A stretch of DNA of 50,823 nt from a virus (lineage: Duplodnaviria; Heunggongvirae; Uroviricota; Caudoviricetes), in the IMG/VR virus record IMGVR_UViG_2721755725_000006; one strand, written 5' to 3'. A program made the position numbers. Numbering within the stretch: position 1 is the first letter of the stretch; each line of letters starts with the position of its first letter. Positions 27,001-30,000 of this stretch are shown piece after piece.

Positions 27001-30000
27001 CGCTATTAAGGCCGGACTGGCGGATGAATTAATCAATGCGTCGGATGCCATCAGCGTGATGGCTGCGGCGCTGAACACTCATGATACAGGAGGCACTATG
27101 CCGCAATTAACTGCAACGGAAGCTGCCGCGCAGGAGAACCAGCGAGTGATGGGGATCCTGACGTGTCAGGAAGCGAAAGGACGTGAACAGCTTGCCACGA
27201 TGCTGGCAGGACAACAGGGCATGAGCATTGAACAGGCCCGGGCTATTCTGGCCGCGGCGGCACCGCAGCAGCCGGTGGCATCCGCGCAGAGTGAAGCCGA
27301 TCGCATTATGGCGTGTGAAGAAGCGAAAGGTCGTGAACAACTGGCGGCAACGCTGGCGGCGATGCCGGAGATGACGGTGGAAAAAGCCCGCCCGATCCTG
27401 GCTGCCTCACCGCAGGCGAATGCCGGGCCCTCACTTCGTGATCAGATCATGGCCCTGGATGAGGCAAAAGGGGCAGAAGCGCAGGCTGAAAAACTGGCGG
27501 CCTGCCCGGGAATGACCGTGGAGAACGCCCGGGCTGTGCTGGCTGCGGGATCAGGTAAGGCCGAACCGGTCTCTGCATCCACAACCGCCCTGTTTGAACA
27601 TTTCATGGCGAATCATTCACCGGCAGCGGTGCGGGGTGGCGTGTCACAGACGTCAGCAGACGGTGATGCGGACGTGAAAATGCTCATGGCCATGCCATGA
27701 AGTCAGTGCTGACCATCAATATGAGGTTTTAACAAAATGGTGACGAAAACCATCACTGAACAGCGTGCGGAAGTACGTATTTTTGCTGGTAATGATCCGG
27801 CTCATACCGCCACAGGCAGCAGCGGGATTTCTTCTGCAACACCGGCTCTGACGCCCTGATGCTGGATGAAGCCACCGGGAAACTGGTGGTCTGGGATGGA
27901 CAGAAAGCCGGTAGTGCGGTTGGCATACTGGTACTGCCGCTTGAAGGCACAGAGACGGTGCTGACCTATTACAAGTCGGGGACCTTTGCGACGGAGGCAA
28001 TCCGCTGGCCTGACAGTGTGGATGAACACAAAAAGGCAAATGCCTTTGCCGGCACAGCCCTGAGTCACGCGGCTCTGCCGTAACACGTTATCAGGCCACC
28101 ATGGTGGCCTGACTGATTTCTGAATGAAAGGAACTGATTTATGGGATTGTTTACGACCCGCCAGTTACTCGGTTATACCGAACAAAAAGTGAAATTTCGT
28201 GCGCTGTTTCTGGAGCTGTTTTTCCGCCGTACGGTGAATTTCCACACCGAAGAGGTGATGCTGGACAAAATTACCGGAAAAACGCCGGTGGCGGCCTATG
28301 TCTCCCCGATCGTTGAAGGAAAAGTGCTGCGCCATCGTGGTGGTGAAACCCGCGTGTTGCGTCCGGGCTACGTCAAGCCGAAACACGAATTTAATTACCA
28401 GCAGGCGGTTGAGCGCCTTCCTGGTGAAGATCCGGCTCAGCTGAACGACCCGGCCTACCGTCGTCTGCGTATCATTACCGATAACCTCAAACAGGAAGAG
28501 CACGCCATTGTCCAGGTGGAAGAAATGCAGGCGGTGAATGCCGTGCTGTATGGCAAATACACCATGGAAGGGGATCAGTTTGATACTGTCGAGGTGGATT
28601 TCGGGCGCTCTGAAGGAAATAACATTGAGCAGGCTGACGGTAAAAAATGGTCTGAGCAGGACCGTGATACGTTTGATCCGACGCATGATATTGACCTCTA
28701 CTGCGATCAGGCCAGCGGCCTTGTGAATATCGCCATTATGGACGGTACGGTCTGGCGTCTGCTGAATGGCTTTAAGCTGTTCCGCGAAAAACTGGATACC
28801 CGTCGCGGCTCAAATTCACAACTCGAAACGGCAGTGAAAGATCTGGGCGCAGTGGTGTCCTTCAAGGGGTATTACGGCGATCTGGCCATTGTGGTGGCGA
28901 AAACGTCTTATGTGGCAGAGGACGGTACCGAAAAACGTTATCTGCCGGAGGGCATGCTGGTGCTGGGGAATACGGCGGCAGAGGGGATTCGTTGCTATGG
29001 TGCCATTAAGGATGCACAGGCGTTGTCTGAAGGAGTGGTGGCTTCTTCCCGTTACCCGAAACACTGGCTGACCGTGGGCGATCCGTCCTGTGAATTCACC
29101 ATGACGCAGTCCGCTCCGCTGATGGTGCTGCCGGATCCGGATGAGTTTGTGGTGGTACAGGTGAAATAATCCGTGAGCGGGGGCGAAATGCCCCCGTGTC
29201 TTTTTTCACAGGAGGCTGAGATGGCAACAAAAGAAGAAAATCTGAATCGTCTTCGTCAACTGGCTGGCCTGCTGGGGCGCGAGGCGGATATGTCGGGGAG
29301 TGCTGCGGATATTGCTCAACGTGTGTCTGAGTGGGAAGAGGAGCTTGCTGTTTCCCCGGAGGGCATTATGCACTCTGATGAGAGCGGGGCTGATCAAAAT
29401 CACACAGACGATGGTGAGCAGTTGAACAACACGGATGCTCCGGATGATGTTAAAGCCGTCCGGGTACGGAAGTGCCTGCAAGTAATGGGGTATTGCCCGG
29501 AGACAGGTCGTCCCGTTGAGCTGGCGTTACGGGGTATGCGTGTTCTGGTGCCATCATCACTGGCAACGGCCATGATACAGCACGGAACGGCTGAATATGC
29601 GTGATTTTCAGAATGCCTTTGATGCTGCCCTCGCCGGGGTAGACAGTACGATCGTTGAAGTGATGGGGCTCTGTGCGCAGTTCACCTCGGGGGCACAGTG
29701 TGGCAGCGAAGTTCAGGGGGTTTTTGACGATCCGGAGTCGCTGGGGTTTGCCGGTGGCGGGGTCCGTATTGAAGGAAGCAGCCCGTCATTATTTGTGCGG
29801 ACGGATACGGTTCGTGCCGTGCGGCGTGGTGACACGCTGACCATTAATGGTGAGATATTCTGGGTGGATCGTGTTTCTCCGGATGACGGGGGCAGCTGTT
29901 ATCTCTGGCTCAACCGTGGTCAACCACCCGCAGTTAACCGGCGACGATAAACGCAGGGTGAAATTATGGCGATAAAAGGGCTTGATCAGGCGATTGACAA

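Follow-up and report, generated by a model that had tools for sequence, protein, structure and literature searches.

The protease/scaffold gene and its three repeat units

The E. coli prophage sequence analyzed here, IMG/VR record IMGVR_UViG_2721755725_000006 (Caudoviricetes; 50,823 nucleotides in full, hereafter the window), carries a prohead protease gene whose 3′ part encodes three diverged copies of a ~43-amino acid (aa) unit in tandem. The gene, an analogue of lambda C and phage 21 gene 5, lies on the plus strand at 26195–27700 in the list of open reading frames (ORFs) and encodes 501 aa from a GTG start that overlaps the 3′ end of the portal gene. The head operon reads portal ORF (24613–26205), protease ORF, a remnant of the head decoration gene shp (27737–28083) and capsid ORF (28141–29169), and the annotated head gene order is identical in E. 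coli E2863, phage 21 and lambda. Overall, the 501-aa protein matched the head maturation protease family phrog_53 from end to end (E = 7e-228), and residues 146–293 (26630–27073, +) matched the S49 serine peptidase domain (Pfam PF01343 Peptidase_S49, E = 4.4e-36), a stretch that also matched the SppA structures 3rst and 4kwb (E~1e-17).

Downstream of the peptidase domain, a Shine-Dalgarno (SD) sequence, AGGAGG (27088–27093, +), is seen ahead of an in-frame ATG at 27098. The nested gene predicted from this start (27098–27700, +), an analogue of lambda Nu3 and phage 21 gene 6, would encode a scaffold of 200 aa and 20.6 kDa. Its SD sequence occupies the same position as the annotated ribosome-binding site (RBS) of phage 21 gene 6 and corresponds to lambda CAGGAGGGCGAATG before M309, while the ATG is homologous to the annotated start of gene 6 or the scaffolding protein in two phage 21 records (M81255.1 and OL657228.1). 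From these sequence features, the scaffold is predicted to be the C-terminal part of the protease, produced by way of an in-frame internal start with its own RBS.

It is this Nu3-like part that contains the repeats. Using a hidden Markov model (HMM) seeded with the three units of the window and the one of lambda, which sets the unit boundaries throughout, we located unit 1 at aa 314–357 (27134–27265, +; 86 bits), unit 2 at aa 366–407 (27290–27415, +; 80 bits) and unit 3 at aa 413–454 (27431–27556, +; 74 bits), with EAKG cores at aa 326, 376, and 423. Units 1 and 2 are joined by a poorly conserved linker rich in Pro, Gln, and Ala (PQQPVASAQ; 27266–27289, +), units 2 and 3 by a shorter one (ANAGP; 27416–27430, +), and the third unit is followed by a C-terminal tail (aa 455–501; 27557–27697, +) in which the alignment shows a conserved F-x-x-F-M helix and an L-M-x-M-P end. 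The original prediction had placed three tandem copies in the Nu3-like part of this gpC homologue, and both that claim and its nucleotide range (27120–27560) held; its aa ranges were off by as many as ~15 residues, with the largest shift in the third copy.

We then asked how far the copies resemble one another beyond what composition alone would give, i.e., whether the repeat could be a chance similarity within an Ala/Gln/Glu-rich, low-complexity helical region. The region is indeed Ala-rich, and finders working on DNA do not report the array: Tandem Repeats Finder did not list it in the window, and a DNA repeat search returned only 12–15-nucleotide seeds at spacings of 150 and 153. In a 36-codon core, however, the copies are 58–66% identical in DNA and 50–61% in protein, and third codon positions of identical residues agree in only ~50% of cases between copies. 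Synonymous sites between copies are thus near saturation, and the array goes unseen by DNA repeat finders because its copies are too diverged. Smith-Waterman comparison of the three unit pairs gave scores of 106, 81, and 102 (z = 17, 12, and 15; shuffled means ~25), which none of 2000 composition-preserving shuffles reached. Three profiles derived from homologues with one copy, phrog_8399 (a head scaffolding protein of 131 aa), phrog_17040, and phrog_8940, each matched three separate stretches of the protein, at 56–86 bits per match. The motif positions of the unit (I, EAxGR, LA, M[ST], A, L) furthermore recur in 68 diverse family members. Against this evidence, we regard chance similarity as extremely improbable. 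In a self-comparison of the gene, the repeat is clear in the protein and barely visible in the DNA.

Across the family, the unit consensus reads ERxRIxAILxxxEAxGRExLAxxLAxxTxMxxExAxxxLxAxP, ~43 aa, from which unit 3 of the phage-21-type proteins departs in reading EAKGAE, with the conserved Arg of EAKGRE gone. In a 20-sequence alignment, mean column conservation was 0.76–0.85 for the units, compared to 0.55–0.61 for the linkers (0.61 for the first, 0.55 for the second) and 0.57 for the tail, and all three copies appear to be under purifying selection. No Pfam or NCBIfam family matched the Nu3-like part or the single units. As a side observation, about 80% of the closest lambda-C-like protease clusters contain the unit, which only PHROG families cover.

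Relation to phage 21 and lambda

The closest described relative of the gene is gene 5 of phage 21, to which it is 96.1% identical in nucleotides over 1506 of 1506 positions and 96% identical in aa. The 55 codons that differ, 33 of them synonymously, reflect point differences only. Both share the 501-aa ORF, the internal start with its RBS, three repeat segments at matching coordinates, and flanking portal, shp, and major capsid genes; the window differs in a 1-nucleotide frameshift in the downstream shp. The primary paper on the phage 21 head genes is that of Smith & Feiss (1993, Gene 126:1-7). The GenBank record of the phage 21 head operon (M81255.1) shows the nested gene 6, described as the Nu3 analogue, with a putative RBS just upstream, along with three repeat_region features, “Tri1 box,” “Tri box,” and “Tri3 box,” noted as “function unknown; putative.” Mapped onto the window, these boxes fall at 27165–27268, 27305–27415, and 27446–27559 and coincide with the three HMM units. 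In the complete phage 21 genome (OL657228.1), the pair is annotated as capsid protease/scaffolding protein and scaffolding protein. By sequence comparison, the gene thus reads as the phage-21-type (“Tri box”) allele of the lambda C/Nu3 nested pair, and its triplication was already known, as recorded in the feature table of M81255.1.

The complete phage 21 record also marks, on the minus strand of gene 6, binding sites for “transcription factor CII” (TTGYN6TTGY). The window retains both, at 27103–27116 (−) and 27337–27350 (−). We do not consider them significant, since the window has 8 occurrences of the pattern, compared to 10.6 expected by chance.

The comparison with lambda is more distant, and it is here that the copy number differs. 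Lambda C aligns with the window protein at 57% identity, and the repeat HMM finds in it a single unit, at aa 357–400, as the original prediction had stated. Common to the two proteins are the S49 domain, a strong SD sequence ahead of an in-frame internal start, one homologous unit, and a homologous C-terminal tail. They differ in that lambda has one unit in place of three, a 36-aa segment upstream of that unit without counterpart in the window protein, and a scaffold of 131 aa (13.4 kDa) in place of 200 aa. An initial MAFFT alignment paired the lambda “DRLM” segment with unit 2, which raised a degenerate second unit in lambda as a candidate; this was rejected, as the segment belongs to the C-terminal tail. 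The tail itself (aa 455–501) does not count as a repeat unit, and its homologue is the tail that follows the single unit of lambda; in tail comparisons with a four-copy sister allele described below, the window scored z = 11 and lambda z = 5.6. The architecture is thus linker, unit(s), and tail, and because the lambda segment after its unit is homologous to the 21-type tail, the expansion is strictly internal.

Regarding the lambda scaffold start, nu3 is annotated in RefSeq NC_001416 from position 5132 (201 aa), with no SD-like sequence in the 20 nucleotides upstream. Lambda Met309, at position 5342 of the same record, has GGAGG upstream and is the counterpart of the annotated phage 21 gene 6 start; its 131-aa product is as long as the PHROG scaffold profile (131 positions).

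The divergence from lambda is also even along the head operon, with portal, protease part, and capsid protein each ~61% identical to those of the window, and the capsid proteins of the two are equal in length. The original prediction had suggested that the expansion could alter head assembly. Because of this equal length and of the uniform identity across head genes, we see no sign of a different capsid design, and the sequences give no hint that the triplication accompanies a different capsid geometry.

Distribution, age, and copy number of the array

Next, we evaluated how widespread the three-copy form is and how old it may be. We searched 5426 complete E. coli genomes by megablast, once for each of three allele types. 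The 21-type form with three copies (query: window 27100–27700) had a match in 1870 genomes at 2922 places, nearly all of them full length and at 95–99% identity. The lambda-type form with one copy (query: the lambda Nu3 region) had a match in 3228 genomes, and the four-copy sister allele (query: L004, positions 330–1043) in about 105. Among isolated phages, the full three-unit region was found in 20 records and a single unit in about 100 others, the latter including lambda, N15, phi80, HK225, Stx1a phages, and Xylella/Xanthomonas phages.

At the scale of the whole family, an exhaustive phmmer search with the 501-aa protein against 1.84 billion cluster representatives yielded 32,394 relatives. 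Units were counted with an iterated unit HMM in the closest representatives, 149 of the 150 listed, and 122 of these are full-length (≥400 aa): 97 of the 122 have exactly one unit, 24 none that is detectable, and only one, P0090 (58% identity), has three. A single copy therefore appears to be the rule across the wider family, and the expansion relative to lambda and most relatives, as first proposed, is borne out. Whether homologues broadly carry three copies depends on the scope: they do within the phage-21-type lineage, and they do not across the family as a whole. A scan of GTDB species-representative genomes, made with narrow patterns, returned four loci of the three-copy form, in E. albertii, E. 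coli, Shigella flexneri, and Providencia alcalifaciens. Finally, a unit profile of 52 sequences, used in a word-indexed protein search for other domain architectures, gave only 5 short E. coli fragments; an earlier search of the same kind had returned mostly gene fragments, which makes it usable for allele variants and not for frequencies.

The age of the array can be examined by comparing copies within and between lineages. Down to 46% identity, the three-unit proteins of E. coli, Salmonella enterica, and Providencia alcalifaciens can be aligned so that each copy faces its same-numbered counterpart. Specifically, unit 1 of the window shares 72% identity with its counterpart in a Salmonella homologue and 50–58% with its own neighbors, and more generally same-numbered copies of the window and Salmonella are 67–72% identical, compared to 50–61% for neighboring copies. 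Since same-numbered copies across lineages are the closest, the triplication predates the divergence of those lineages.

This bears directly on a rival explanation raised in the original prediction, namely that the tandem duplication is recent and confined to this phage or prophage. That lambda has one copy would fit such an event, and tandem repeats can grow fast: the four-copy sister allele contains young copies that are 92% identical. In the window, however, the copies show the low DNA identity and near-saturated synonymous sites described above, the arrays of Salmonella and Providencia correspond to it copy by copy, and the same array is found in 1870 of the 5426 E. coli genomes and, at 96% identity, in phage 21, isolated in the 1950s. 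We thus consider a recent origin to have almost no chance of being correct. Instead, the array most likely goes back to a tandem duplication within the gene in an ancestor of the 21-type head module of Enterobacterales prophages and is far older than this prophage, and its three copies have since been retained by purifying selection.

Such retention has not frozen the copy number. Three sister alleles with 21-type tails represent in-register deletions of one unit: P0022 is an exact hybrid of R1 and R2 with two copies, P0018 is a two-copy form without unit 2 whose breakpoints differ from those of P0022, and P0013 lacks most of unit 2. Two-copy allele clusters are rare, with 1–3 member sequences each. 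At the other end, the four-copy allele P0029 (locus L004, E. coli GCA_032727965.1, contig ABNWJB010000046.1; array at L004 positions 410–918) belongs to the same gene family as the window gene, with the same unit and tail and a capsid protein 83% identical to that of the window. Its units are 72–92% identical to each other, and Tandem Repeats Finder detects the array in its DNA (period 138 nucleotides, 3.7 copies, 77% matches). This pattern of copy numbers, as read from the sequences, fits unequal recombination and conversion within the array; copy number still shifts occasionally, most likely by in-register unequal recombination, giving rise to the rare two-copy and the four-copy sister alleles.

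For discovery, the triplication itself matters little: it has stood in the phage 21 GenBank entry for decades, and about one third of complete E. coli genomes have it. What remains is of modest value, i.e., a unit without a Pfam or NCBIfam model although it occurs in most lambda-C-like proteases, and a natural series of 1-, 2-, 3-, and 4-copy alleles ready for testing the role of the conserved core of the lambda-type scaffold.

A few neighboring features of the prophage were also recorded. The decoration gene just downstream (27737–28083), a homologue of phage 21 shp and lambda D, is frameshifted: an ATG at 27737 opens 40 codons that end at a TGA (27857–27859), and the remaining 74 residues lie in another frame (ORF 27859–28083). 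The cause is one C missing in a run at 27854–27856, where phage 21 and E. coli E2863 read GACGCCCCTG and the window reads GACGCCCTG, and the frameshift points either to a pseudogene, in a prophage that is decaying, or to an error in sequencing the homopolymer. Of the complete genomes found, E. coli E2863 (NZ_AP018802.1) is the closest: it is 100% identical to the window over 27100–27700 and, over 27690–28100, identical except for this single-base indel. Its region is annotated as a lambdoid prophage that carries an IS66-family element (ISEc47), a tRNA-Ile/Arg/Arg cluster, and a tape-measure gene with a frameshift; IS1203 lies in its lysis region, and the gene for the type III effector nleC follows the tail-fibre genes. 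At ~11064–12677 (−), the window contains an ORF of 537 aa, equal in size to the E2863 IS66 transposase.

Predicted fold and possible role of the unit

To examine the fold of the unit, we modeled the 200-aa scaffold with AlphaFold2 from a 20-sequence alignment. The model shows short helices in each unit at a predicted local distance difference test score (pLDDT) of ~75–82, with low confidence in the linkers, the first of which coincides with a dip in pLDDT, and in the tail, and with a predicted template modeling score (pTM) of 0.28. A low pTM with confident units suggests, at the level of the model, independent modules on flexible linkers. Modeled in isolation, a single unit forms a helix followed by a confident helix-turn-helix hairpin; the full-scaffold and single-unit models disagree in the first half of the unit. 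A PDB sequence search with the Nu3-like part gave no match, and a Foldseek search of the 200-aa model against the PDB gave nothing at E ≤ 0.001.

From these models and from the biology of lambda, we can outline how the array may work. Each unit would fold alone into helices that end in a helix-turn-helix hairpin, and the units would be strung like beads on flexible Pro/Ala/Gln linkers. Each may then act as a conserved interaction module that takes both scaffold and protease into the assembling shell, through contact with the major capsid protein and/or other scaffold molecules, so that a 21-type scaffold would offer three interaction sites per chain in place of one. For lambda Nu3, two-hybrid interactions with E, with C, and with itself are reported (PMC3224144). 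Because the unit is common to protease and scaffold, because Nu3 has these three partners, and because other scaffolds use helix-loop-helix elements, an interaction role appears the most likely one; the unit is probably a module for scaffold interactions, three of which would make the 21-type scaffold trivalent. Taken together, we judge it likely that the window holds an ancient phage-21-type allele with three diverged units, for which a role as interaction modules can be inferred.

Two other functions have to be weighed. In one, only a single unit would be functional, and the other two would be tolerated as spacers, making the scaffold longer but giving it no additional binding sites. The existence of rare two-copy deletion alleles, which indicates that prophage genomes, at least, can lose a unit, would be consistent with this, as would the missing Arg in unit 3. 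However, these alleles form clusters of one to three sequences, set against thousands of three-copy genes, and all three units retain the family motif down to 46% identity and are better conserved than the linkers and the tail, so that we find a spacer function unlikely. In the other, the unit would be a scaffold self-association element, for dimerisation or oligomerisation, or a recognition and cleavage cassette for the S49 protease in its removal of the scaffold, and not a capsid-binding site. The reported Nu3–Nu3 and C–Nu3 interactions of lambda would agree with it, but a Nu3–E interaction is likewise reported (PMC3224144). As read from the sequence, every unit also ends in an Ala-rich L-A-A-x-P beside a flexible linker, where an SppA-like protease could plausibly act. 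To our knowledge, no cleavage sites have been described for Nu3 or gp6. Self-association or protease recognition is a serious contender, if less probable than the capsid- and scaffold-contacting module outlined above.

More tentatively, this interaction module may be a family-wide device for shell targeting, common to the protease and the scaffold of lambda-like heads, with a copy number of 1, 2, 3, or 4 in natural alleles as an evolvable setting of scaffold valency or length; we hold this broader idea to be possible and would not yet favor it. If true, unit copy number would tune the kinetics or fidelity of assembly with capsid geometry unchanged.

The proposed module can finally be set beside known scaffolding systems. 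The scaffolding proteins of P22 and phi29 are helix-loop-helix proteins (PMC3185693). P22 gp8 and phi29 gp7 have a small helical hairpin in a scaffolding protein that leaves the shell (PMC3185693; PMC11922011), and the hairpin predicted for the unit may be a similar element. No relationship in sequence or specific fold between these proteins and the unit was detected by the PDB sequence search or by Foldseek. They also differ from the window in having one hairpin element and no tandem array, and in scaffolds that are not nested in a protease gene. In P22, it is a C-terminal helix-loop-helix element that binds coat protein, which offers a model for how the unit might work. This coat-binding hairpin is basic, whereas the units of the window are near-neutral to acidic.

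A second parallel, in gene organization, is found in the herpesvirus UL26/UL26.5 pair, where protease and assembly protein are likewise made from nested in-frame genes. There, the protease fold and sequence are unrelated to those of the window gene, the capsid-binding element lies at the extreme C-terminus, and we know of no tandem module array. What the two systems have in common is a protease and a scaffold with the same C-terminus, which brings both of them into the procapsid.
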